From Escherichia coli (GTDB lineage Bacteria > Pseudomonadota > Gammaproteobacteria > Enterobacterales > Enterobacteriaceae), in NCBI RefSeq assembly GCF_041886205.1, contig NZ_CP169029.1: a stretch of 64,000 bases of DNA; one strand, 5' to 3'. Positions 3,407 through 56,650 of the stretch are shown here, piece by piece. Numbering within the stretch: position 1 is the stretch's first letter; each line of letters starts with the position of its first letter. The translations under genes and the position numbers were made by a program. Below the pieces are notes generated by a model. It saw nothing but the letters and a program-made list of their open reading frames with translations, was not told the origin of the DNA and did not search any database.

Positions 3407-3660
3407 AATATTCTTCTCGAGTGGTAATAGGTAAGTTTATTATATGCAGTTCAATTCTCTTATTGTGTTTTATTGGCATGATCTTAGCGGCCATAATAAC
3501 TAAACTAACGTTTGTAGCGTTAGCATGGTTTCAAAGCGGGATTTTTGAAGTTTTGTGGAGCGATATTGTTTATGCTGCTCAGTTGGGTGGTCTGGGGGGG
3601 GGCATATTAGGTTTTTGTTGGGTTTTGTTATATCTTTTTAGGGCAAAGGGCTTTAGTTGA
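3403..3660 (+). CDS. cdiI: Putative CdiI immunity protein (85 aa, predicted membrane protein)
   Basis: Start overlaps cdiA stop (ATGA); small hydrophobic protein immediately after the toxin domain. Confidence 0.65.
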
Positions 3661-4564
3661 GAATAACTACCTCAGCTACGACGAGGCGCATGCTTTTGAC
3701 AGAGAAATGACGGCCTGTCGTAAAGCGGGTGGAGACTGTGGCGATATTCAGAATAAATATGCTGTATTAAGCGCAGAGAACCGACAGAAATTACACATTG
3801 ATGTGGCTGCAGATCCTCTTACGGCTCTGTCCGGGGAAGATAAATGGAATATTGAGGGCGGACTCAGCGCGGCGGGCCGACCTGGCTGGCTGTATGGTTC
3901 ACTGACTAATCAGGAGGTGAAGGATTACGTGACTGAAGGCAACAGCTACGACCTGAACTATCTGAACAGTAATACGTCGAAGGGTGACAGGGCTCTGGCT
4001 TTCTTCGGGGAACCGGAAAATTACTGGGGTACGGTTGCCGGAGCGGGTTCGTTGTTAACGTCATCAGCCACGCTGACTGAAAAATTTGTCAGTGCCGGGC
4101 TGAGCTATGGGGCTAATGGTGCGGTACAAATTGGTACGGGAAATATCGGTGATAAGTTCGATTATCTCAGTTTCATGATGTCAGGCTTGACTGGTGTAGG
4201 TACAGCCGGGAAAGGATATTACGCTAACCAGTTGTTGGGTGCTGGTAGTGCTTACATGAGCAGCCAGATTGAAGGCCAGGACAGTACCGCATCAGTAGTG
4301 GGTAGCATGGCTGGTACAGGCCTAGGATATAACGTTGGTGCTTCAATTACTAATAAGTTAGAAGCTCAATACATCAAAAATCAACTGGGAATGGACGCCA
4401 GTAAATATTCACTGCAATATTCGGAAAAGTCTATCGGATACGGTATGTATCAAGGCGGACAAATGAGTTCTATACCAGGAACATTTGGTGGATTTGTTGG
4501 TTCATTCGTATCAGAAGGTGCAAGCAGCGCAACGCAAAAAGAAGTTGATGGAGACAAAAAATGA
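3656..4564 (+). CDS. Orphan cdiA-CT module 1 (VENN remnant + glycine-rich toxin domain); internal ATG at 3707
   Basis: Frame begins with [11 protein letters not shown] directly after cdiI stop, with no upstream start; Gly-rich domain ending EVDGDKK like the main CT. Confidence 0.65.
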   Translation, partial: VENNYLSYDEAHAFDREMTACRKAGGDCGDIQNKYAVLSAENRQKLHIDVAADPLTALSGEDKWNIEGGLSAAGRPGWLYGSLTNQEVKDYVTEGNSYDLNYLNSNTSKGDRALAFFGEPENYWGTVAGAGSLLTSSATLTEKFVSAGLSYGANGAVQIGTGNIGDKFDYLSFMMSGLTGVGTAGKGYYANQLLGAGSAYMSSQIEGQDSTASVVGSMAGTGLGYNVGASITNKLEAQYIKNQLGMDASKYSLQYSEKSIGYGMYQGGQMSSIPGTFGGFVGSFVSEGASSATQKEVDGDKK

Positions 4565-4779
4565 AAAAATATCTACTACTTCTTATTAAGTTGTTACTTA
4601 TATCTATAGCTACTTGCTCTATTGGAATAGTGGTTAGTATCTGGCTTATAGCTCGGGAACCAATACCTTCTGAGGTGTATGTAAAATACGGAATAATTGG
4701 CGCAGTAGTTGGCTTATGGGGAGGTGCTGGGATTTGGTTACAACTCTATCTACAAATGCGAAGATACTATCGTAAATAG
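4561..4779 (+). CDS. Orphan cdiI 1 (72 aa membrane protein)
   Basis: ATGA overlap with preceding toxin module; strongly hydrophobic. Confidence 0.55.
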   Translation: MKKYLLLLIKLLLISIATCSIGIVVSIWLIAREPIPSEVYVKYGIIGAVVGLWGGAGIWLQLYLQMRRYYRK

Positions 4780-5429
4780 TTGTTGTTGAGAATAACTCAC
4801 TGGCGCATGTACTGGCAGCAGCGGAAGCGAACAAAGCAGGGACTGCAGAGAAATGGCAGGAAGAGCAGCAGGCTGCGATTAGAGAGGCGTGCAGTGGTGG
4901 TACGCCGGTTTCGTGTGAAACAGCAGTCGCAGCGATGGGAAGTGCAATGGTATGGCCGCTATTGCCAGGGGCGGCAGCCACTACAAGTCTGATAGGTGCA
5001 GGAGCGAATGCCGGCATCGGGTTACTGATTAACGGTGAAGTGAATCCAAATGATGTCATTCTTGGTTACTGGACGGGAGTCTTTACAGCAGGAACTAGGC
5101 TGTGGGGGACGATGGGTGTGAATGCGGCCAGCGGAGCCACATCCAGCTATCTAAAAGGTGATGATCCGCTGAAAGGTGGGGCAATGGGGGGAATGTCGTC
5201 AGGATTAGGATATGGTGCTGGCAAAGTTCTTCAGGGGCAACTCGATAAGTTCATTAATCCAAACTGGAAGAATTGGGAGTGGGTTGATGTTGGTATGGGC
5301 ATATCGAAGCCAATGCCATTAGATCCACTGCCTGGGGTTATCGGCAATATGGGAGGTTCTGCGTCTACAGAATACATCAACGATCGAATAGGAAAATCTT
5401 TGAGTGATAAATCAGGAGATAAGAAATGA
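4779..5429 (+). CDS. Orphan cdiA-CT module 2 (VVVENN + glycine-rich toxin domain); first ATG at 4935
   Basis: In-frame VENN codons at 4785-4796 with open frame through 5429; no start codon before 4935. Confidence 0.6.
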   Translation, partial: VVVENNSLAHVLAAAEANKAGTAEKWQEEQQAAIREACSGGTPVSCETAVAAMGSAMVWPLLPGAAATTSLIGAGANAGIGLLINGEVNPNDVILGYWTGVFTAGTRLWGTMGVNAASGATSSYLKGDDPLKGGAMGGMSSGLGYGAGKVLQGQLDKFINPNWKNWEWVDVGMGISKPMPLDPLPGVIGNMGGSASTEYINDRIGKSLSDKSGDKK

Positions 5430-5680
5430 GTTCTTCTGACCGCAAAAAGATCCTGATCCTTTTAATATGCATGGTGACTGGTAGTGCTGTTGGTGTTTTT
5501 ATAACCATACTATCTATGTCTTTATTAATAGATATATATCTATATATCGCAGAAGGTATAAGGTTAGACATGCATACATATAATCTTGAAAAACTTTTTA
5601 AAGTAAGTTCATTCTGTGGTTGTATAGGCGGCGGTGGCTGTTGGTTACTCTATTATCGAAATTATAGAAAAAATAAATAA
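5426..5680 (+). CDS. Orphan cdiI 2 (84 aa membrane protein)
   Basis: Overlapping start; hydrophobic segments. Confidence 0.55.
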   Translation: MSSSDRKKILILLICMVTGSAVGVFITILSMSLLIDIYLYIAEGIRLDMHTYNLEKLFKVSSFCGCIGGGGCWLLYYRNYRKNK

Positions 5681-5682
5681 TA

Positions 5683-5820
5683 GTTGAGAATAACTACCTC
5701 AGCTACGACGAGGCGCATGCTTTTGACAGAGAAATGACGGCCTGTCGTAAAGCGGGTGGAGACTGTGGCGATATTCAGAATAAATATGCTGTATTAAGCG
5801 CAGAGAACCGACAGAAATAG
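5683..5820 (+). pseudogene. Duplicated stub of orphan module 1 (VENN-proximal ~135 bp) ending in TAG
   Basis: 5684-5817 is a near-exact copy of 3658-3791, then TAG at 5818-5820, in the same frame as the following module. Confidence 0.6.
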
Positions 5821-7173
5821 GATATTGCCGGGCTCAGCCGGGACCCGGAAAACGCCAACGGCAGCATTGCACCGATATTTGACAGGGAGAAAGAGCAGAA
5901 GCGTCTTCAGGAAGCGCAGGTTATCAGCCAGATTAGCGGTCAGATGAGTAACATCGTCATGACGTATGGCGAAACTGAAGCGATGAAAGCAGCCAGGAAA
6001 GAGCATCCTGGCATGAGCGATGCACAGTTGCGGGAGACTCCGGAATACAGAGAGGTCATGAAAGGCTACGGTACGGGCAGTACGCCGCAGATGGTGGTAC
6101 AGGCCATCACAGGCGTGCTGGGCGGACTGAATGCAGGGAATCCGGGGCAGGTACTGGCTGGCGGTCTGAATCCGGCAGTGGCACAGCTTATAAAACAGGC
6201 CACCGGCGATAACCGGGAAGCAAACCTGATGGCTCACGCAGTCTGGGGAGCGCTTGCCGCACAACTGGGCGGAAACAATGCGGCTTCCGGTGCTGCAGGG
6301 GCATTCAGCGGTGAACTTGCAGCCCGGTATATCATTGATAACTACTACGGTGGTCGTACCGATAACCTGAGTGAACAGGAACGTCAGCAAATCAGCATGC
6401 TGGCCACCATTGCCTCAGGTATTGCGGGCGGGCTTGTCGGCAACAGTACAAGTGCTGCCGGTACGGGGGCACAGGCAGGCAGGAACTCGGTTGAGAATAA
6501 TGCGCTGAGTCTGGTTGCCAGAGGCTGTGCGGTCGCAGCACCTTGCAGGACTAAAGTTGCAGAGCAGTTGCTGGAAATCGGGGCGAAAGCGGGCATGGCC
6601 GGGCTTGCCGGGGCGGCAGTCAAGGATATGGCCGACAGGATGACCTCCGATGAACTGGAGCATCTGATTACCCTGCAAATGATGGGTAATGATGAGATCA
6701 CTACTAAGTATCTCAGTTCGTTGCATGATAAGTACGGTTCCGGGGCTGCCTCGAATCCGAATATCGGTAAAGATCTGACCGATGCGGAAAAAGTAGAACT
6801 GGGCGGTTCCGGCTCAGGAACCGGTACACCACCACCATCGGAAAATGATCCTAAGCAGCAAAATGAAAAACCTGTAGATAAGCTTAATCAGAAGCAAGAA
6901 AGTGCGATTAAGAAGATCGATAACACTATAAAAAATGCTCTGAAAGATCATGATATTATTGGAACTCTCAAGGATATGGATGGTAAGCCAGTTCCTAAAG
7001 AGAATGGAGGATATTGGGATCATATGCAGGAAATGCAAAATACGCTCAGAGGATTAAGAAATCATGCGGATACGTTGAAAAACGTCAACAATCCTGAAGC
7101 TCAGGCTGCGTATGGCAGAGCAACAGATGCTATTAATAAAATAGAATCAGCCTTGAAAGGATATGGAATATGA
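5821..7173 (+). CDS. Orphan cdiA pretoxin-VENN-CT module 3; toxin domain ends with GYGI
   Basis: ~220 codons homologous to the cdiA pretoxin region ([22 protein letters not shown]...), VENN at 6490-6501, C-terminal tetrapeptide GYGI at 7159-7170; first ATG at 5944. Confidence 0.7.
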
Positions 7174-7556: not shown

Positions 7557-7597
7557 CTAATCCCGGTCACTGAGCCGAGATCTTCTTTGTGTGCCGG

Positions 7598-9415
7598 GCA
7601 TGTTCAGCAGCTCGGGGGTGAAAGTCCCCTGTCCAGCCTGATGGTGGCGAAGGACTAGCGAAGCGCAAGGGCGTCGTCGTAAGGCGGGGTCTGAAGGAAG
7701 CGTGAAGCAAATCCATGACCTGACGAACAGAAATCCGATACGAGGCCTACCCGGTTGGCGGAGCAAGCAAAGAATTGCGAAGGCCATAACCATCAAGAAC
7801 CGGGGGGTAAATCGGACAGGTGTGTGGTGAAGGCGTCTGAACTTACCCCGGGAGGCCTGTCCGTCGTTCTGTATCTAGAACTTAGCGTACCGTAAGGGGC
7901 GCTGACCGGCGGACAGGAGTCAGCAGAGGGCATAGTAGGGCATGACACCCGAAGGCCCGAACGGTAATGAGTGACGAGTATCAACGGAGGTTCTGAACGG
8001 TCATGCAGCAGAAAACGCATCGCGCCCCTGAGGCCGGAGAACGGGGTGAAGCCCCGAACGCCGCCCTTCCGGGGGCTGAAACCGTGCAGGCACCGACGAA
8101 CAGAGAAAGTCCGTCGTCAACAGTGTGGCTGATGGAAGCCATTTGTGAACCAGTCAATCTCAGGCAAGCCCTGAAAAGAGTTAAAGCCAACAAAGGTGCA
8201 GCGGGAGTCGATGGTATGCGCGTAAGCGAACTGCCGGACTACCTGAGGCACCACTGGCCAGAGCTGAAAGCGCAACTACTGTCTGGCAGATACCGCCCAT
8301 CTCCTGTGAGAAGAGTGTCCATACCGAAGCCCGGCGGCGGCGAACGTCTGCTGGACATCCCGACGGTGGTGGATCGCTTCATCCAGCAGGCGATGATGCA
8401 GGTATTGCAGGGGCACTGTGGGATAGCTCGTTCAGCGATAACAGCTACGGGTTCCGTCCCGGTCGTTCGGCCCACCAGGCAGTGATACAGGCCCGGGAAC
8501 ATATCGGGGCCGGGTATCACTGGGTGGTCGACCTCGATCTGGAGAAGTTCTTCGACCGGGTAAATCACGATGTGCTGATGAGCCGGATAGAGAAACGAGT
8601 ATCGGATAAACGGGTGTTGTCACTTATCCGCAGGTTCATGAATGCAGGGGTGATGGACGCAGGTCTGGTAAGGCCGGTGACAGAAGGAACGCCGCAGGGC
8701 GGCCCACTGTCGCCGCTGCTATCGAACCTGCTGCTTGACGACCTCGACAAGGAACTGGAGAAACGTGGTCTGAAGTTCGTGCGGTACGCAGACGACTGTA
8801 ATGTCTACGTGAAAAGCGAACGGGCAGACAACCGGATCATGGCGGGGTTGACGCACTGGCTGAGCCATAAACTGAAGCTGAAGGTCAACGCGAAGAAGAG
8901 TGCTGTAGCACGCCCTGAAACGCGCAAGTTCCCTGGATACAGCTTCATAAGGGGGCGGAAGGTATGGTGCGTGGTATCGCCGGAGTCGATAAAACGGTTC
9001 AAAATGCGGATAAGAGCACTGACCGGACGCAACACAGGGAGAAGCCTTGAACAGCTAACCCGGTTGCTAAAACGATATCTGACGGGCTGGAAAAGTTACT
9101 ACGGGCTGAACCAGAGGCCATCGCTGATGCGAGAGCTGAACGGATGGATAAGGCGCAGTCGAGGCGTAAGCAAGGACCTTGCGGCGCAAACAGCAGGAAG
9201 CTGCCATAAAGAGTGGCGGATAAGCTGTAGTCCGGCACTGAATATAGCACTCCCCAATAATCTGTTCTCCAGACTGGGCCTGCCAGAAGTATAGGCAGGC
9301 GACGATCAACATAACCGAACCGCCGTATACGGCCCCATACGTACGGTGGTGTGGGAGGAAGCTGATCGTGAGATCAGCTCCTATCCCGATTTAACCGTCA
9401 GTCTCCCCCAAAATG
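7598..9415 (+). mobile_element. Group II intron (boundaries approximate)
   Basis: GUGUG-type 5' start near 7598, structured GC-rich RNA domains, internal RT/maturase ORF, domain V-like hairpin near 9320-9360. Confidence 0.65.
8003..9294 (+). pseudogene. Group II intron reverse transcriptase/maturase, frameshifted near 8420-8430
   Basis: RT motifs (SYGFRPGRSAHQA, YADD) split between ORF 8003-8485 and ORF 8482-9294; the correct frame switches between ...QVLQ and LWDSSFSDNSYGF. Confidence 0.75.
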
Positions 9416-9956: not shown

Positions 9957-11444
9957 TCACCCGGAGAAGGTAAATCCCTCAAGAGGCAGCAACTCTGCCA
10001 GTCGCTCCTCCGGCCACTCCGGCAGACGCATCAGGACGTCTGTCAGCCAGGCATGCGGCTCCAGACCGTTGCGTTTCGCGGTTTCCAGCAAGCTCATTAT
10101 TTGCGCGGCGCGTTCTCCTGCCATCTGCGAACCGGCGAACAGCCACGATTTTCTGCCCAGGACCACGTTTTTGATGGCCCGTTCACACACATTATTATCC
10201 AGCGGCACCGCACCATCTTCCAGGAAGCGGCTTAGTTCCACGCGATGAGACAGCGCATAGACAATGGCTTTGTGTAATGCCCTTCCCGGAGAACATTGCG
10301 GTTCCTGCTCTTCAAGCCATGACCACAGATCTTCCAGTATCGGACGGGCATAACGCTGTCGCCACTGGCGGATTTTTTCCACGGGGCGGCTACTGATCTT
10401 CTTCTCAAGACGGTACAACCCCGCGATTTTCTTCACGGCGATGGCAGCCCGTGGATCTTTACTGATTTTATACAGGTCGGCGAAGCCCCTGCGGGCATGG
10501 GACCAGCATCCGGCCAGCGTGATCTCCGGCACTTTGTTTGCCAGAGTCCGGTAAGCTTTATGTCCGTCGACAACCAGCGTCCCGCCCCAGCCCTGAAGCC
10601 AGTTTTCAGGATACTCATGGCTACGTCCGGTCCGGCAGTTGAAGCACACAACTGACGGTCCCGTCCTTTCTCCACTGACGTATGCCCACAGATAACCGGA
10701 GCAGGATTTACCGCCTTTCTTCGTGTTCAGGAGCTTCAGGGTAGTCTCATCTGCATGCACCACCGGACGGTTTATCAACTCGCGATGGAGTAACGCCGCC
10801 AGGGGAGATAATGCGGCACCCGCCGCGCCAACCATGTCAGCCATCGAACTGACGGGAAGCCCGACATCTGAACGGGCAAAGACCTGTTGCTGGCGATACA
10901 GAGGCAGGTGGTCACCGTATTTATTGATGATCACCTGTGCGATGACTGATGGCTCAACGGCACTTTTCGGGAGGATATGTGCCGGCATTTCACCGCTGAA
11001 CACCTTCTGGCAACAGGGACAACTGTATTGCGGACGGACATAACAGTTCACCACGAAGTGAGCGGGAATATACTCCAGCTTTTCACTCACCGCATCACGG
11101 ATATAGTGCAGCGGCTCGTCACATTCAGGGCAATGGTCAGTGTCCGGCTGGATAATTTTTTCCACCCGTGGAAGATGAGCCGGTAAGGATTTGCGTATCG
11201 GGCGTGAACGGGACGCTTTTTCGTCTTCTTCAGGGGATTGCGGGAGCAGTTTATCCAGATGTGCGGTAAGCGCGGCGATATCGACATCAACATCCTCTTC
11301 GAACAGGGAGCGTTGCATACCAGCCAGCGTTTCACATTTTTTACCGAAGCGCTGTTGACGAACCAGTTTCAGCATTTCTTCCAGAAGCTGGATGCGCCGG
11401 CTTTTCTCCAGTAATTCCCGCTCTTTTTCGGCATTCTCCGACAT
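9957..11444 (-). CDS. tnpC: IS66-family transposase TnpC
   Basis: 495 aa; motifs [17 protein letters not shown], zinc-finger cysteines. Confidence 0.85.
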   Translation of the reverse strand: MSENAEKERELLEKSRRIQLLEEMLKLVRQQRFGKKCETLAGMQRSLFEEDVDVDIAALTAHLDKLLPQSPEEDEKASRSRPIRKSLPAHLPRVEKIIQPDTDHCPECDEPLHYIRDAVSEKLEYIPAHFVVNCYVRPQYSCPCCQKVFSGEMPAHILPKSAVEPSVIAQVIINKYGDHLPLYRQQQVFARSDVGLPVSSMADMVGAAGAALSPLAALLHRELINRPVVHADETTLKLLNTKKGGKSCSGYLWAYVSGERTGPSVVCFNCRTGRSHEYPENWLQGWGGTLVVDGHKAYRTLANKVPEITLAGCWSHARRGFADLYKISKDPRAAIAVKKIAGLYRLEKKISSRPVEKIRQWRQRYARPILEDLWSWLEEQEPQCSPGRALHKAIVYALSHRVELSRFLEDGAVPLDNNVCERAIKNVVLGRKSWLFAGSQMAGERAAQIMSLLETAKRNGLEPHAWLTDVLMRLPEWPEERLAELLPLEGFTFSG

Positions 11445-30600: not shown

Positions 30601-32651
30601 GTGAGACTACGCCGAGTCTATTGGCTATTCGCTTTGATTTTGATGCTGCTCGTAAGCGAATTAGTAGCGGCAGCCAGCTACAATTGGAATCGATCCGTGA
30701 CAAATCATCAAGAGAGTTGCGTCAAAGAGCCCTTCAACGGGTAATTGAAAACAAAGCAGAGATCCAGCATCTGCCACAGTATTTTGATTACCACCAGAAA
30801 CCCTGCATGCAGCAAATGCAACCGCGGCCATCCGCGGAGACATTACGCGCACTTTATGATCAGCCTGGACAACGTTTTAATGAACAGCAGCTAATGGCAT
30901 TTCAACAGTTGGTCGAGTTTGGACCAGTTGGAGTTCTGCAGGGACCACCTGGAACAGGTAAAACAACATTTATTTCAAAATTTATTCACTATCTGTATCA
31001 ACATTGCGGTGTGAATAACATTCTTTTGGTCGGGCAATCCCATGCCTCTGTTGATAATGTAGCCATCAAGGCTCGAGAGCTCTGCCATACGAAAGGAATG
31101 GAACTGGATACAGTACGTATTGGTAATGAACTTATGATTGATGAGGGTATGCTAAGTGTTGCAACTAAAGCTCTTCAGCGACAGATTCAGCATAAATTTC
31201 ACCGTGAATATGATCTGCGAGTTAGCTCCCTAGGAAAGCGCCTAGGGATGGCCCCATTATTAGTCCAACAGTTATGTCAGTTACATCGTACGCTGAATCC
31301 CTTGATGGTGACATATGGCCAATATAGCCGTGAGCTGGATAAAGTAGAACAAATAAAGAGTAGTAGTATTAGTCATCAAGAGCGACTGGCTGAATTATTA
31401 GAACAAAGCAATCAGCTTAAACTGCGAACACAAGAAATTATTAACTCAATATTCGATGACAGCTTGCTGAAAACTCTTGTCTATGATGAAACCTTGATAA
31501 GACAGTTGGCTGAGCAAGTTGCCATACAATACAATTATAACAATCCAGAGAACCTTGAACGTTTTATGCAGCTATTGGAAATGAGCCAAGAGTGGATGGA
31601 TGTATTACGCGGCGGCGAGGCTGGATTTGATCGATTTATGTTCAAAAGTAAGCGATTGGTTTGTGGAACTCTTGTTGGTGTTGGGAATCGTCGACTAGAA
31701 CTAGCTGAGTCCAGCTTTGATTGGGTAATAGTTGATGAGGCTGGCCGAGCACAAGCTGCTGAATTGATGGTAGCGCTGCAATCAGGCAAGCGGGTGCTGT
31801 TGGTAGGGGATCATAAACAATTGCCACCATTCTATCATCAACAGCATCTTAAGTTAGCCTCTAAGAAATTAGAACTCGGGAAAGGGATCTTTTATGAGTC
31901 TGATTTTGAACGTGCTTTTAAAGCAACAGGCGGCGTAACACTCGATACTCAATATCGAATGGTAGAACCAATTGGCGAGTTAGTATCGGAGTGCTTTTAC
32001 GCTCAAGATATCGGTAAACTGCATTCATCGAGGAAAGTCTCGCCAGATTGGTATTCCAAGTTACCAATCCCTTGGAACAAAACTGTTACTTGGATCGATA
32101 GTTCGAGCCCTAATGAAGCAGGTGCAGAAGAACATAAGGGTAATGGTCGTTACTATAATCAACGAGAAGTCCGGCTACTGCTAGAGGCTTTGCAGTCATT
32201 GTCGAGTGATGGCTGCATTGCACAGCTTGAGCAAACTATTACCACAGAACAGCCATATCCTATTGGTATAATCACAATGTATCGTCAGCAAAAAGAGGAA
32301 ATTGACAATGCTATCAGTCGGGCTGAATGGGCTGCATCGTTACGTGGTTTGATCAAGATCGATACCGTTGATTCATATCAGGGCCATGAAAACAAGATAA
32401 TTATCCTCAGTCTGGTTCGCGATAATCCCAACAAACTACAAGGTTTCCTGCGCGACGCGCCGCGAATAAACGTTGCTATTTCGCGAGCTCAAGAAAGGTT
32501 ATTGATTCTGGGAGCAAGGCGTATGTGGTCAAAGACCAATAATGATTCAGCACTTGGAAACGTTCATGAATTTATTAGTAAACAGGTTGCAGTAGATGAA
32601 CCCAACTACCAAATCCTGTGTGGTCAAAGTCTGCTTGGAGATAACAACTAA
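27693..32651 (+). CDS. 1652-aa multidomain protein: N-terminal NERD-like domain, two protein-kinase-like domains, C-terminal SF1 (Upf1/DNA2-like) helicase
   Basis: GTG start with AGGAG RBS; NERD-like EIDMLIITADRLLLVELKEW; kinase-like HCDIDPHN...TGFG...DVFMLAVIAY and HGDLCPEKLLV...DAFGRDCFAVY; helicase Walker [10 protein letters not shown], Walker B VIVDEAG, motifs LVGDHKQLPP, DSYQGHE, VAISRAQERLLILG. Confidence 0.8.
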   Translation: MKYQIVGGAGLHRSETKTVDMMVKQLPDSWFGYAGLVVTDSQGSMEIDMLIITADRLLLVELKEWNGNITFEGGKWLQNGKSRGKSPYQIKREHALRLKDLLQEELSRKLGYFLHVEAHVVLCGTAGPENLPLSERRYVHTRDEFLTIGNPKNYEKLVQHTNFFHLFEGGKPRPNSDEALPIIKSFFEGPKVRPLPLKESGYLANDKPFFSHPHMVYNEFRATHKDNSQHRGLLRQWNFDALGVANAMQTLWAEIALRETRVGRLVRHGSATMQDYMLRAVRELSEEDITDDARELYELRRSFSRLDEILDSEADGWSKSERIDRVRALLAPFSELHSLGISHCDIDPHNLWYAGDQKSIVVTGFGAASLEGHNSLESLRPILQSAPYILPEDAFEEAVEPYRLDVFMLAVIAYRICFAGESLLTPGQMPEWRAPLTDPFSGILNSWFEQALNLEPSKRFPRADIMLNEFNAATKEHSQEFDEANQIYQELKQNKFFREGMNSVGVLIEFPPLPEQLSMVYSALAAIATTGSISYHCEQGGKALQVKLWDGVILTPQQPGVNRRIHAFKQRIDKLTHINLPTPKVQSYGLLGQGGLYVVSEYVDGLPWSQFIAENVLVQSQRFTIAEKLINTIHAFHEKQLPHGDLCPEKLLVQVGEQTVITLIGLLEFSDELTADNRYQPENPESTDAFGRDCFAVYRMVEELFSEDMPVLVQAELERAKQTVDGIPIALDPLLQSIRAPEQAEINQVVASESQDKVIPVCWGTDDWPQEVKLLEQNDGIYYFQCNWSSNPRFAHELRCYITGLGERLLIDLDPDNRTINRIVYEKGLSIEESIKAGKYSQAKINTQLSLQRGSLNQRNTFIELLFNLEPVIDAIIERANPNQEMDEDDFDSSESSPIELWQALSDTEVDLRDIVNIDSTDFQESPSGCLLYPYTTESGADLSFELDDKIIVYIKDKRESVQLGELQLSETTPSLLAIRFDFDAARKRISSGSQLQLESIRDKSSRELRQRALQRVIENKAEIQHLPQYFDYHQKPCMQQMQPRPSAETLRALYDQPGQRFNEQQLMAFQQLVEFGPVGVLQGPPGTGKTTFISKFIHYLYQHCGVNNILLVGQSHASVDNVAIKARELCHTKGMELDTVRIGNELMIDEGMLSVATKALQRQIQHKFHREYDLRVSSLGKRLGMAPLLVQQLCQLHRTLNPLMVTYGQYSRELDKVEQIKSSSISHQERLAELLEQSNQLKLRTQEIINSIFDDSLLKTLVYDETLIRQLAEQVAIQYNYNNPENLERFMQLLEMSQEWMDVLRGGEAGFDRFMFKSKRLVCGTLVGVGNRRLELAESSFDWVIVDEAGRAQAAELMVALQSGKRVLLVGDHKQLPPFYHQQHLKLASKKLELGKGIFYESDFERAFKATGGVTLDTQYRMVEPIGELVSECFYAQDIGKLHSSRKVSPDWYSKLPIPWNKTVTWIDSSSPNEAGAEEHKGNGRYYNQREVRLLLEALQSLSSDGCIAQLEQTITTEQPYPIGIITMYRQQKEEIDNAISRAEWAASLRGLIKIDTVDSYQGHENKIIILSLVRDNPNKLQGFLRDAPRINVAISRAQERLLILGARRMWSKTNNDSALGNVHEFISKQVAVDEPNYQILCGQSLLGDNN

Positions 32652-34198
32652 TGTCAGAACCACGTCTGGGTAATCTGATTACCGTTTTACTACCTGCGCG
32701 TAGTTACAAGATCAACTGCGCTTTGACCACTGAAAAACTGATGCCTGGAATTGAACAGTTTGCATGTCGCTTGCTGCTGATTTTTGATCAACTCTATCCC
32801 AGCGAGTTACAGAATTACTTTGGTCTAACTGATCGTGAGCGAGAGGTATTGCTTGATGGGTTGCTGGCTAACAGACTGATCAACATTAATCCTGATGGGC
32901 ATATTGAGGCTAGCTCATTCCTACGTAAGCATGCAGCTAATAATGGTGGGAAGCCAAGTTTAGTTAAATATCAAGAATGTACGGAGGAAGTTGCATTCGA
33001 TCTACTAACTCTTTCGATATGTAAACCGCAACCAAATCGTCGTTTTACTTCTGGACTGCCAGAGCTATTGCCGCGGCATCAGATCGGGGGAGATGCTGCT
33101 GCGGTAACAGAGGCTTTTAGTTCCCAGTTTAGGCACCATCTTTTGCTCAGCCGCAACAGCGAGTATGAGCGTCAACGGACTAAATTATATAAGATAATGG
33201 GCTGTAGTTCGCATGAGATGGTGCAGCTCCCAATAGAGATAGAGGTTAGCTACGGTGTTTCTGCTGGGAGCATTGAGCCGCAGAAATTTACTCGTTCCTA
33301 TGAATATTTAGGTAACACCCGGCTGCCGCTTTCAAACGAGCTGGAAGCTCATATCGCAGATTTTTTGGGAGAACATAAACTAGATGAATTCGGTATCGAC
33401 TGTGAAGATTTCTGTAAACTAGCAAATGATAAAGTGTTGTTACAATTTGCTAATGGTTATAAGTTCAACTATTCCGGCTGGATAGAGGCTCGTGAACAAC
33501 GTAAAACTGGCTACGGTACTTCATTGACTACCGGCATGTTAGGGGCTGTTTATTTGCCGCACAATTCTAAGCTGTTCATTAGTATGTTGCATAATGCATT
33601 ACGTGATTATATAGGTAAAACAGCTCCAAAAGCGCTGTGGTATAGCAGTAAAGTACCACTGTGGGGAGCTAATGGTAGTCAACTTTCGCGTTTTACTCGC
33701 GCTCTAGGCGATATACTTGGCAATTATGCCGATGATAAGATTGCTCGCATTTCGCTTTTACACTCAAGTGCAGATGAAGGTGAAAAACGTCAAGAGCGTA
33801 AGCGGCACTTAGGTCGTTTTCCTACCGGTATTGGCCTTACTTCAGAGGCTAAATTTGATCGTTTGGAGATCCTCTTAATTCCTGATGTGATTGCTTTGGT
33901 GCAATACCACGGTCAACCTAATTCTGATAGTGCATTAACCCTGCCGATTGGTTATATAACTGTTGAGCCAGAGCGTTTAGAATTACTTAAAAAACTAATG
34001 ATTAAGCGAACTGAAGGGGCTGTTGCAACCATTACTTGGTCTGAATCAAAATTTGAAAATTTAGCTTCGCTATTACCTGTTGAGTTTCTGATTAAACTGA
34101 ATAAGAAAAGCGGTGAAGATGTGGATGCTGCAATAAAAAAAATGCAGATCTATAACCGTGCTGAAACCGCACGGGCAATTTTATCGCTACGCAAGTAG
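32651..34198 (+). CDS. 515-aa protein of unknown function, translationally coupled to the upstream gene
   Basis: Start ATG overlaps the upstream TAA (TAATG); no recognisable motifs. Confidence 0.6.
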   Translation: MSEPRLGNLITVLLPARSYKINCALTTEKLMPGIEQFACRLLLIFDQLYPSELQNYFGLTDREREVLLDGLLANRLININPDGHIEASSFLRKHAANNGGKPSLVKYQECTEEVAFDLLTLSICKPQPNRRFTSGLPELLPRHQIGGDAAAVTEAFSSQFRHHLLLSRNSEYERQRTKLYKIMGCSSHEMVQLPIEIEVSYGVSAGSIEPQKFTRSYEYLGNTRLPLSNELEAHIADFLGEHKLDEFGIDCEDFCKLANDKVLLQFANGYKFNYSGWIEAREQRKTGYGTSLTTGMLGAVYLPHNSKLFISMLHNALRDYIGKTAPKALWYSSKVPLWGANGSQLSRFTRALGDILGNYADDKIARISLLHSSADEGEKRQERKRHLGRFPTGIGLTSEAKFDRLEILLIPDVIALVQYHGQPNSDSALTLPIGYITVEPERLELLKKLMIKRTEGAVATITWSESKFENLASLLPVEFLIKLNKKSGEDVDAAIKKMQIYNRAETARAILSLRK

Positions 34199-34412
34199 CA
34201 TTTATATTGCAACGAATAAATTTTTCTAGGTTGCTATGAACTAGCTAAAGGGCAACAAATAGATAAACGGCGTTATTCATGTCAAATGAGATAATGTTAA
34301 ATTGATAGGGATTTATACCCCGCCGGCCATTTTGAATGGTCGGAGTTGTTATAAACGTTAAACCGCCCCGGAAATCCTGGAGACTAAACTCCCTGAGAAA
34401 GAGGTAAACAGG

Positions 34413-34739
34413 ATGACTAAAAATACACGTTTTTCCCCCGAAGTCCGTCAACGGGCAGTTCGTATGGTTCTGGAAAGTCAGGGCGAATATGACTCACAAT
34501 GGACAGCAATTTGTTCTATTGCCCCTAAGATTGGCTGTACACCGGAGACTCTGCACGTCTGGGTACTCCAGCATGAGCAGGATATTGGGGGCGGTGATGG
34601 TGGTTTCACCACCACTGAACGTCAGCGTCTGAAAGAGCTGGAACGTGAAAATCGTGAACTGAGCCGCAGTAACGATATCCTTCGCCAGGCTTCCACTTAT
34701 TTTGCGAAGGCGGAGTTCGACCGCCCCTGGAAAAAATAA
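34413..34739 (+). CDS. IS3-family OrfA (IS629-like)
   Basis: 108 aa; MTKNTRFSPEVRQRAVRMVLESQGEYDSQW. Confidence 0.8.
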   Translation: MTKNTRFSPEVRQRAVRMVLESQGEYDSQWTAICSIAPKIGCTPETLHVWVLQHEQDIGGGDGGFTTTERQRLKELERENRELSRSNDILRQASTYFAKAEFDRPWKK

Positions 34740-35112
34740 TGCCACTGCTGGATAAGTCGCGTGAGCAGTACGGGATCGGACCGGTATGCAGTGAACTGCA
34801 TATTGCCCCGTCAACGTATTACCACTGTCAGCAACAGCGACATCATCCTGATAAACGCAATGCCCGTGCGCAGCGTGATGACTGGCTGAAGAAAAAGATA
34901 CCGTGCGTATACGATGTGCGTAAAGTCTGGCGTCAGTTGTTTCGGGAAGGTATCAGAGTGGCCAGATGCACTGTGGCACGTCTCATGGCGGTTATGGGGC
35001 TTGTCGGTGTTCTCTGGGGTAAAAGGTCCGCACTACCGTCAGCCGGAAAGCCGTTGCCGTAGACGACCGCGTAAACCGCCAGTTCGGGGCAAAGTCGTGG
35101 GTGGCTGATTTT
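34739..35112 (+). pseudogene. IS629-like OrfB, truncated and frameshifted, interrupted at ...ADFTY by a group II intron
   Basis: OrfB N-terminal homology across two frames, ending at the intron 5' end. Confidence 0.7.
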
Positions 35113-35644
35113 ACTTACGGTGTGCCCGGAGTTCAGGGTGAGCACGGATGCTGAAATGAACCATGAGTCTGTCTGGAATATGGAACAGATAACTCATGAC
35201 GAGAAGCCCAACAATCCCACCGGGTGTGACTGTGGTGAACCTGAGCGACTGTGACCTGCGGCATTCCCTAAGGATGATGTAACCCGCTGACAACGGGGAT
35301 TGAGGCGAGATCACTAAGCCGAGATGATCCTCAAGGTTGAGTGCTGAAAGGCTGAAGAACATGAACCCGTTAATCCGCCTCTGTGGGCTGAAAACGTCAC
35401 CACGGCCTACATGATCTGACAGGTCGTGCAGAAGTAACTGTCTGCGACACGTATGCGCGGGTCAGTCAAAGGTGTTCTGACATGTATGCAAAACACCGGG
35501 ACAGCAACGCCTATCACGCTCACGTTGCTGACTTCTGTCAACTTGCGGCAAGCAAGGACAAAGAGTGCGACGGGCAGCCTCCTCAGTATGTATGAGTTCA
35601 GACAGGTGAACTGGGGAAGGTCAGCGACGGATGTTAAGGAGGCA
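35113..35644 (+). mobile_element. Group II intron 5' fragment (no RT ORF; 3' part missing)
   Basis: Begins GTGTGCCCGG like the intron at 7598; structured GC-rich sequence, no long ORF. Confidence 0.55.
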
Positions 35645-35930
35645 GTAAGCGTCAACGGAGCACCGTATTGACGCTTATTTATTGGTGAGAACTACGTTTC
35701 ATGGCAGGAGTTCGTCAACACGGTTGGATAGTAATGCACGGCTCAGTTCGACACCCTGTCGGGCAAAGATTTCACTCTGACGATACAGTGGCAGGTGTTC
35801 GCAGTATTTTCCCGTTAACACGCGGGCAAGTAATCCGGGGCCGCGATACCACGCTCTATCGGGCAGGACGGCGCCAATGATAGCATTTATACAAGCAATT
35901 CTGGGAGCTTATAGATTGTGTGCAAAACTT
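35645..35930 (-). pseudogene. IS66-family tnpC fragment
   Basis: Minus-strand translation gives [35 protein letters not shown], matching the TnpC core. Confidence 0.6.
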
Positions 35931-36221
35931 TTGATAGCAGGAGGTTACAACAGTATTGATGAAAAAGATCATTCAAATCGATTTATATATTTTGTTAATG
36001 TTATCTGTTTTCAATCTAATAACCACGAATATAGCTAATTATAGGATGATTACTAGTTTTGCTACCCTATCAACCAAACGTTCACCGGACATTAGAAAAC
36101 ATGGAAATTTCTTGTTTTTAAATGCTTTTTACACCAATAGAAAAATTTACATTCCAAAATCATTAGTCTTTGCGTAATCAAAAGATGTAATGGTTTTTTT
36201 CCTTACTACTTCTAGATAATC

Positions 36222-36345
36222 CGCCCACTACAGCAACATCAACTTACGCTCATCTAAATGCTCCGCCTTATGGATATAAGCTACCCGCACTGAATTACAT
36301 TCCATGCGGCTCATCAGACGTCCAGTTGCTTTACTGTCTTCAGGG
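36222..36345 (-). pseudogene. 3' remnant of a second P4-type integrase gene
   Basis: Minus-strand translation ...MSRMECNSVRVAYIHKAEHLDERKLMLL* is homologous to the intact integrase C-terminal region; ~70% nucleotide identity. Confidence 0.6.
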
Positions 36346-36584
36346 GGATGCTCTTGTAATCCCAACCTCTCGTGCTTTCTGAGCATAACACATCCATGTT
36401 GCTGCGATTATCTCTTAAACCCGTCCTTACCATTTTTATTGATACGATAAGGAACCTTCATCATACATGATCGATTTTGTCGATCGATTCGATCGAATTT
36501 TCTCTTTTTACCCTGTCTTTTACATGGTTTTAAAATAAGCACCCCATTTATTGTTCGGGGAAAGTGATAGCAGAGGTAACTGAA

Positions 36585-44523: not shown

Positions 44524-44599
44524 TGGTGCCCGGACTCGGAATCGAACCAAGGACACGGGGATTTTCAATCCCCTGCTCTACCGACTGAGCTATCCGGGC
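44524..44599 (-). tRNA. pheV: tRNA-Phe (GAA)
   Basis: 76-nt match to the canonical E. coli tRNA-Phe including CCA end; location next to yqgA and speC. Confidence 0.95.
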
Positions 44600-56408: not shown

Positions 56409-56650
56409 GTTTGATATAGCGCACGATTTGTAGCAGGATGCGGCGTTGACCCCGCATCCGGCAATCAACGTCTGATGCGACGCTTGCGCGTCTTATCAGA
56501 CCTACAACCGCTGCCACATGTCGGCTGAGGCGCTCACGCCGCATCCGACAATCAACGTCTGATGCGATGCTTGCGCGTCTTATCAGACCTACAAACGTTG
56601 CCACATGTAGGCTGGATAAGGCGTTCACGCCGCATCCGGCAATACAAGTT
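56409..56650. repeat. Cluster of REP/BIME elements
   Basis: Repeated GCCGCATCCGGCA, GTCTGATGCGACGCT and CGTCTTATCAGACCTACA units in alternating orientation. Confidence 0.8.

Follow-up and report, generated by a model that had tools for sequence, protein, structure and literature searches.

The class A group II introns of Escherichia coli and Shigella include E.c.I4 and the near-identical S.f.I1. Proteins of class A, to which E.c.I4 belongs, are without an endonuclease domain (PMC3552965); the full length of E.c.I4 is given as 2271 nt, and its targets are specific positions in the insertion sequences IS629, IS911, ISEc16 and ISEc31 (PMC3522654). Four fragments of this intron have been published, of 1764, 132, 985 and 405 bp (PMC3522654). 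The fragment of 1764 nt, found in the CP4-6 prophage of K-12 (ykfC/eyeA region), is 99% identical to E.c.I4 and was named E.c.I4-tr1 by Leclercq and Cordaux; it sits at the homing site within IS911 and has lost its 3' part to a later insertion sequence, IS5 (PMC3522654). Under the naming rule of the same study, a nucleotide divergence of more than 10% from the reference calls for a separate intron name (PMC3522654).

A full-length copy in strain MLI106K4 (locus L002, positions 4008-6277, 2270 nt) serves here as the reference. It starts with GTGTGCCCGG, splits an IS629 exactly between ...ACTTACG and TCAGCAC..., and is followed by the resumption of the host sequence at TCAGCACATGG. Its D5/D6 region is recognised by Rfam model RF00029 (64.9 bits, at 6191-6277 of that locus), and it encodes a protein of 502 amino acids with RVT_1 and GIIM domains, beginning at intron position 672, in which a domain search detected no endonuclease domain. 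This copy is 99.7% identical to E.c.I4-tr1 of K-12.

The scar described here is of the same kind as E.c.I4-tr1, being an intron copy at the homing site with its 3' part gone. It lies in a window of 64,000 nt, the whole stretch of an E. coli contig (NZ_CP169029.1) that was analysed. Unlike E.c.I4-tr1, the intron has an IS629-like rather than an IS911 host, was truncated by an ISEc23-like element rather than by IS5, and retains 525 nt at 90% identity. It is not among the four fragments published in PMC3522654; E. coli scars of this kind are thus on record already, but not this particular fragment. Three layers, an insertion sequence, an intron stub and an IS66-family remnant, are present far beyond what chance would produce, which confirms the three-layer nesting that the initial annotation had proposed from the letters alone. 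We consider it very probable that the region is a non-functional nested scar of mobile elements, formed by four steps in the order given below. Its features are as follows.

Structure of the locus

34359-35119, plus strand: IS629-like (IS3-family) element, 5' part, 761 bp; it forms the outermost layer and provides the intron's 5' exon
34413-34739, plus strand: intact orfA of the insertion sequence, 108 amino acids (ORF list; Pfam HTH_Tnp_1, E = 1e-9)
34694-34810, plus strand: ALIL pseudoknot, stimulator of programmed -1 frameshifting in the IS3 family (Rfam RF01497)
34739-35119, plus strand: orfB remnant, N-terminal third, a pseudogene (three-frame translation and alignment to intact copies)
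35050-35119, plus strand: last ~70 nt of the 5' exon, a diverged tract (alignment of the window with strain 222, locus L009)
35120-35644, plus strand: E.c.I4-like (class A) group II intron, 5' 525 nt, colinear with E.c.I4 positions 1-524
35450-35455, plus strand: candidate EBS1 loop, CGUAUG (a hairpin loop in both consensus folds)
35645-35875, minus strand: ISEc23-like IS66-family remnant, 231 bp (mapped onto the complete ISEc23 at locus L013)
35645-35668, minus strand: terminal inverted repeat of the ISEc23-like element, GTAAGCGTCAACGGAGCACCGTAT (GTAAGCG...; comparison with loci L013 and L007)

The host element retains its left inverted repeat (34361-34383, 23 nt), which has an inverted match at the right end of the complete insertion sequence at locus L010, together with an orfA carrying the helix-turn-helix domain, the ALIL pseudoknot (107.3 bits; gathering score 50) and the N-terminus of orfB through the first motif of the catalytic region, WVADFTY. 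It lacks the remainder of the DDE domain as well as the right inverted repeat, and is consequently a partial element. The left inverted repeat, orfA, the ALIL signal and the N-terminus of orfB, including WVADFTY, are all held in common with IS629 / IS1203 (IS3 group), to which DNA identity is ~89-90% (89.5% for 34361-35119 against the IS629-family copy of MLI106K4), whereas the frameshifts, the deletions and the loss of the 3' half set the window copy apart; it is an insertion sequence related to IS629 / IS1203, yet distinct from them. Its orthologues in strains 222 and SC516 are 99-100% identical to it, up to ~35049.

It had been claimed that the OrfB reading frame stops precisely at ...ADFTY. 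OrfB similarity does end there, after ...WVADFTY and a single G at 35119, but the open frame is already broken further upstream. Compared with IS629, orfB carries a 21-nt deletion, a 1-nt frameshift with a stop at 35060-35062, and a 12-nt deletion; three-frame translation and alignment show that the remnant reads MPLLDK...GVLWGK, then shifts, then continues as KVRTTVSRKAVAVDDRVNRQFGAKSWVADFTY. It is because of these upstream lesions that the frame of ADFTY differs from the frame in which orfB starts, and orfB was thus already a pseudogene.

The intron stub begins with GTGTGCCCGG at 35120, directly after the ADFTY codons; the initial annotation was correct in placing the intron after these codons, but its start at 35113 was 7 nt off. 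Group II introns share the 5' boundary consensus GUGYG, and the window agrees with it, having GUGUG at 35120-35124, preceded by ...ACTTACG. In intact and empty-site copies of the insertion sequence the exon end is followed instead by TCAGCACATGG (TCAGCAC...), such that these copies read ...GATTTTACTTACG and then TCAGCACATGG across the insertion point. The exon/intron junction of the stub is identical to the junction in full-length copies, and its 5' end is the same as that of E.c.I4 (GUGUGCCCGG).

From 35120 to 35644 the stub aligns with E.c.I4-type copies at 89.5-90.5% identity (E = 0), that is, 89.9% to the MLI106K4 reference, 90.3% to the copy at locus L005 and 89.5% to E.c.I4-tr1 of K-12. 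Alignment to known E. coli group II introns thus bears out the proposal that a truncated intron occupies the IS629-like orfB, the stretch being colinear with a full-length intron at ~90%, and its measured length of 525 nt agrees with the ~530 bp first estimated. The nearest relative is a variant found on IncF-type plasmids (locus L003), which is 95.1% identical to the stub and 86-89% identical to E.c.I4, and which has a frameshifted RT gene. A divergence of ~10% would place the stub on the borderline of the published naming rule, and 'E.c.I4-like' seems the safe label.

The window copy ends at intron position 524 and thereby retains 23% of the intron; D5, D6 and the RT/maturase ORF are absent from it, and the ORF list contains no long ORF on either strand between 35120 and 35650. 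It is therefore a fragment of an intron and not an intron, unable to splice or move, and inert. Besides the want of D5/D6 and of a protein gene, it differs from E.c.I4 in its ~10% divergence and in having CGUAUG rather than CGUAAG in the candidate EBS1 loop.

As in E.c.I4, the insertion point lies within an IS3-family orfB after the codons for D-x-T-Y. Three IS629-like copies (loci L002, L005 and L009) carry the intron at this very position, and it occupies the homologous position in the IS911 of K-12 (locus L008), where GTGACCTATA is followed by GTGTGCCCGG, and in another IS3-family element on the plasmid carrying the nearest variant, where TTACGTATA is followed by GTGTGCCCGG. Every one of these insertion points falls just after the codons of a conserved W..D.TY motif. 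Comparison of the IS629 target with known homing sites, which the initial annotation had suggested, yields a match to the E.c.I4 site (PMC3522654); the stub occupies the homing site that has been published for E.c.I4 within transposase genes of the IS3 family.

In E.c.I4 the loop equivalent to 35450-35455 reads CGUAAG, which is fully complementary to CUUACG, the six bases that end the exon, and the window loop, CGUAUG, pairs with the same exon end at five of six positions, with one mismatch. We treat this loop as a candidate EBS1, assigned by inspection. A candidate EBS2/IBS2 pairing, of GAGAUCA (35307-35313) with exon UGAUUUU, was rejected, as the pairing is lost for the exons of IS911 and of the plasmid element and the loop is unstable between folds.

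The stub had also been described as a second member of an intron family represented elsewhere in the window, at ~7590-9390. Both are indeed group II introns, the element at ~7590-9390 having matches to RF02001 and RF01998 and a sub-threshold match to D5/D6, but the kinship does not extend further: there is no nucleotide similarity between that intron and E.c.I4, and its protein is 30% identical to the E.c.I4 protein. The two belong to different group II lineages.

Comparison across strains

The chromosome of strain ZYB39 is all but identical to the window; there, RefSeq labels at the identical locus are confined to 'transposase' and 'IS66 family transposase' pseudogenes and the intron stub is unannotated. 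The junction between intron and IS66-family remnant was found in only five records, those of ZYB39, EcPF14, SCU-101 (two records) and FDAARGOS_1262. Divergence between EcPF14 and the window amounts to ~1.4% and is uniform over the flank, the insertion sequence, the intron stub and the IS66 piece; this uniformity implies that the junction is older than the divergence. Unrelated extra remnants are present in EcPF14 ~18 kb away.

Other strains hold the same insertion sequence in different states. In SC516 the orthologous copy, which likewise follows the AAA-protein and hypothetical genes, is empty, while strain 222 has a full-length E.c.I4 (99.9% identical to that of MLI106K4) at the same site of its orthologous copy. 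Empty, full and truncated states of one insertion site are thereby observed directly. The lost 3' parts of the intron and of the insertion sequence were not found within the window.

Identity between the window and strain 222 changes abruptly, falling from 99.9% to ~90% at a point ~70 nt upstream of the intron. There are 3 differences in the 3691 nt of 31359-35049, against 76 differing positions in the 595 nt of 35050-35644. The tract at 35050-35119, with its 12-nt deletion, shares the intron's ~10% divergence from the 222 and SC516 alleles, and both the diverged exon tract and the deletion occur again in EcPF14, which has the same intron variant. These observations point to ~35050 as a recombination boundary between copies of the insertion sequence, and to a locus history that includes at least one recombination event.

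Such a boundary bears on how the intron arrived, which may have been by retrohoming or by recombination. One reading, to which we give an even chance, is that the intron allele was imported together with ~70 nt of 5' exon by recombination or gene conversion, the donor being another intron-bearing, perhaps already IS66-disrupted, IS629-like copy; or else that the lineage of 222 and SC516 replaced everything to the right of ~35050. This would account for the sharpness of the switch in divergence and for the association, common to the window and EcPF14, of the altered exon tract with this one intron variant, and it is consistent with the intron at the orthologous site of strain 222 being a different allele, 99.9% identical to E.c.I4. 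On the other hand, sliding identity of the SC516 copy to IS629 displays no abrupt change that would give the exchange a direction, and no donor insertion sequence was found that combines the same 12-nt deletion with an intact variant intron. Import would in any case concern only the arrival of the intron and not the identity of the layers. A more general proposal might be built upon it, namely that endonuclease-less class A introns spread among IS3-family copies mainly by homologous recombination that co-converts a short piece of 5' exon, and less by classical retrohoming, and that the ~10%-diverged variant represents a second class A lineage, as yet without a name and differing in its EBS1; we advance this only as a speculation, and a rather doubtful one.

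The IS66-family remnant and the cut through the intron

Intron homology ends at 35644, and the inverted repeat GTAAGCGTCAACGGAGCACCGTAT starts at the very first base beyond it; where E.c.I4 continues past position 524 with TGGCTCCG..., the window continues with GTAAGCGTCAACGGAGCACCGTAT. In strain 222 this 24-mer has its pairing partner at the other end of a 1677-bp element (3501-3524 with 5154-5177 of locus L007). An identical stretch of 45 nt forms the tnpC-proximal end of a complete ISEc23 on a plasmid (locus L013), where the 8-bp target duplication GATTTTAC flanks the element; that ISEc23 struck another composite of an IS3-family element and E.c.I4, 5 nt from the intron.

The remnant itself is made of two pieces of ISEc23. 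Window positions 35645-35728 correspond to ISEc23 positions 1-84 (the inverted repeat and the 3' end of tnpC), and 35713-35875 to positions 918-1081 (internal tnpC); the pieces are joined over an 834-bp deletion, with an overlap of 16 nt at the joint. Identity to ISEc23 (IS66 family) is complete over the first 45 nt and 94-96% over both retained pieces, but complete ISEc23 does not have the 834-bp deletion, which is common to the window, EcPF14 and remnants of the strain 222 type. The internal tnpC piece is recognised by Pfam as DDE_Tnp_IS66 (PF03050, 1.6e-12). On the right, IS66 homology stops at 35875, both in comparison with locus L004 and in a genome-wide search, and tnpA and tnpB are gone, as are the second inverted repeat and the greater part of tnpC.

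An internal IS66 fragment on the opposite strand had been reported at this place; family and strand are as claimed, but the fragment is not wholly internal, as it takes in the terminal inverted repeat. Since the piece includes the end of the element, the junction is an insertion point and not a random breakpoint, and the start of the repeat at the first base after the intron indicates that it was transposition of the IS66-family element that cut the intron.

A reciprocal junction from the other side of the insertion would read ...CGCTTAC AGGAGGCA TGGCTCCGATG, the end of the IS66-family element being followed by the 8-bp duplication AGGAGGCA and by the intron from position 525 onward. None was present in 5426 complete E. 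coli genomes. A match of 61% in CFS3292 is a chance extension, and a match of 100% in the plasmid at locus L013 consists of two separate pieces. Consequently, insertion into a full-length intron is something that we infer from the intact inverted repeat rather than observe, and the distal intron, the distal IS66 element and the 3' half of the insertion sequence would have been lost by later deletion or recombination.

The same negative result, along with the several other deletions in the IS66 element and the surrounding island, is what might be cited in favour of an alternative in which some unrelated deletion cut the intron short, with the IS66 fragment lying beside the breakpoint by coincidence. 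We think this very improbable, given that the base after 35644 is the first base of an IS66-family terminal inverted repeat, and that a random endpoint would fall on that base with a chance of about 1 in the element's length.

Proposed history of the scar

Taking transposition of the IS66-family element as the cause of the truncation, we propose a history in four steps. First, an IS629-like element of the IS3 family would have entered an island associated with tRNA-Phe and begun to decay. Second, its orfB would have acquired an E.c.I4-like class A intron, exactly at the site characteristic of this family after the D-x-T-Y codons. If the intron came by retrohoming, the mechanism may have been reverse splicing directed by EBS/IBS pairing and primed from a replication fork, this being the route expected of E.c.I4-type introns because their proteins, which have reverse transcriptase and maturase domains, have no endonuclease domain. 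Third, an ISEc23-like element of the IS66 family would have transposed into the intron, entering after position 524 and before 525, and so divided the ribozyme. Fourth, deletions or recombination would later have taken away the distal IS66 element, the 3' half of the insertion sequence and the remaining 1746 nt of the intron, with D5, D6 and the protein gene among them. We infer that the IS66 insertion preceded these deletions.

The locus adds one more case to the E.c.I4-type introns residing in IS3-family elements, mostly as inactivated fragments in large mobile islands, and it shows class A introns to be somewhat more varied, with variants at 90-95% identity, than the near-identical trio known in 2013. 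Empty, full and stub states at one orthologous insertion sequence, combined with a sharp boundary, make it a small, clean example of island mosaicism, and putting a name to the unannotated 525-nt stub keeps it from being taken for novel non-coding sequence. What is new is limited to the ~10% diverged allele, the exact insertion junction and the clean recombination boundary; beyond annotation the significance is slight, all of the elements being dead and of known kind.

Structure searches and decay of the stub

At gathering thresholds Rfam reported the ALIL pseudoknot and nothing else in the range 34739-35930. Its intron models gave no match in 34300-36300 at E <= 10, and domains I-IV of full-length E.c.I4 were equally unmatched, the complete intron being found by Rfam at D5/D6 only; the stub has no match because Rfam has no model for D1-D4 of this class. 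The covariance search that the initial annotation had named as a refuting test is for that reason uninformative about the intron. The want of an Rfam intron match and the RefSeq 'transposase' pseudogene label at the edge of the stretch are all that would speak for 35120-35644 being a diverged continuation of the transposase or an unrelated insert, a notion that we dismiss as next to impossible, since no frame carries OrfB (VSTWRGF...) on past ADFTY, intact and empty-site copies continue with TCAGCACATGG, and the stretch runs colinear with the start of an element in which D5/D6 and an RT/maturase gene are present.

Consensus folds of three to four close sequences conserve the hairpins, while long-range pairing is unstable. 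An assignment of the truncation point to a domain boundary was considered and rejected: given 525-nt inputs, RNAalifold joins positions 4-7 to 523-526 in the manner of a complete domain I, but with 693-nt inputs 520-523 are paired with 530-533 instead. An 11-nt tetraloop receptor (zeta motif) formed from UAUGG...CCUAAG (~35176 and ~35268) was likewise discarded, as CCUAAG occurs only in the window copy; the other copies carry CCCGCAGG, a perfect hairpin that is broken in the window. Overall, the window copy breaks 8 consensus-fold pairs and the plasmid copy, whose RT is dead, breaks 3, whereas both copies with an intact protein gene, towards which the consensus is weighted, break none. Read through these predicted folds, the stub appears to be accumulating stem-breaking substitutions, and so to be decaying.

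Mosaic structure of the island

The E. coli strain EcPF14 (record L011, 1100-36600) shares with the window the junction of IS element, intron stub and IS66 end; beyond it, in EcPF14, come IS100, a further IS66 and approximately 35 kb of pathogenicity-island genes, including sfa/foc fimbriae and hlyCABD. Only after this long stretch do the outer-membrane-protein and phosphoethanolamine-transferase genes appear in EcPF14, whereas in the window (35876-36570 compared) they come less than 700 bp after the same junction, and the two sets of copies are only 88% identical. The island is therefore a mosaic. The same EcPF14 island carries a second, separate E.c.I4-like fragment (L011 18248-19562; intron positions 927-1144, 86% identity), which adjoins an inverted IS629 3' fragment and is physically separated from the intron stub considered here.

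On plasmid pCol156-IncF of E. coli S3 (L013 520-600 and 3060-3110), a complete ISEc23 lies in an IS3-family element that holds a full-length E.c.I4; it is inserted 5 nt upstream of this intron, and the target duplication is 8 bp (GATTTTAC). IS3::intron composites have therefore been struck by IS66-type elements more than once. The IS66 end in the window contains an internal 10-bp palindrome (TAAGCGTCAA ... TTGACGCTTA; 35646-35677) that spans the inverted repeat and subterminal sequence, and which is less perfect in the element of strain 222.

Other RNA features

In K-12, the annotated small RNA gene eyeA (b4690) sits within the E.c.I4 remnant (intron positions 390-464; L008 2581-2655), and the homologous stretch is retained in the window stub, at about 35509-35583, with few changes. 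Further features of the window are:

7590-9390: the 'first' group II intron, 5' end GTGTGCCGGG, with RF02001 and RF01998 matches and a sub-threshold RF00029 D5/D6 match
9957-11444 (-): intact IS66 tnpC, shortly downstream of this intron
44524-44599 (-): tRNA-Phe (GAA) gene, approximately 9 kb right of the stub region
56432-56589 (+): two tandem matches to naRNA4 (REP-derived nucleoid-associated RNA), barely over the Rfam gathering score

The 'first' intron and the stub at 35120 belong to different lineages. The ribozyme of the former appears complete, its D5/D6 match lying at 9318-9390 (33.6 bits), and a frameshift splits its RT/maturase gene into ORFs at 8003-8485 and 8482-9294. The position of the tRNA-Phe gene is consistent with a pheV/pheU-associated genomic island.
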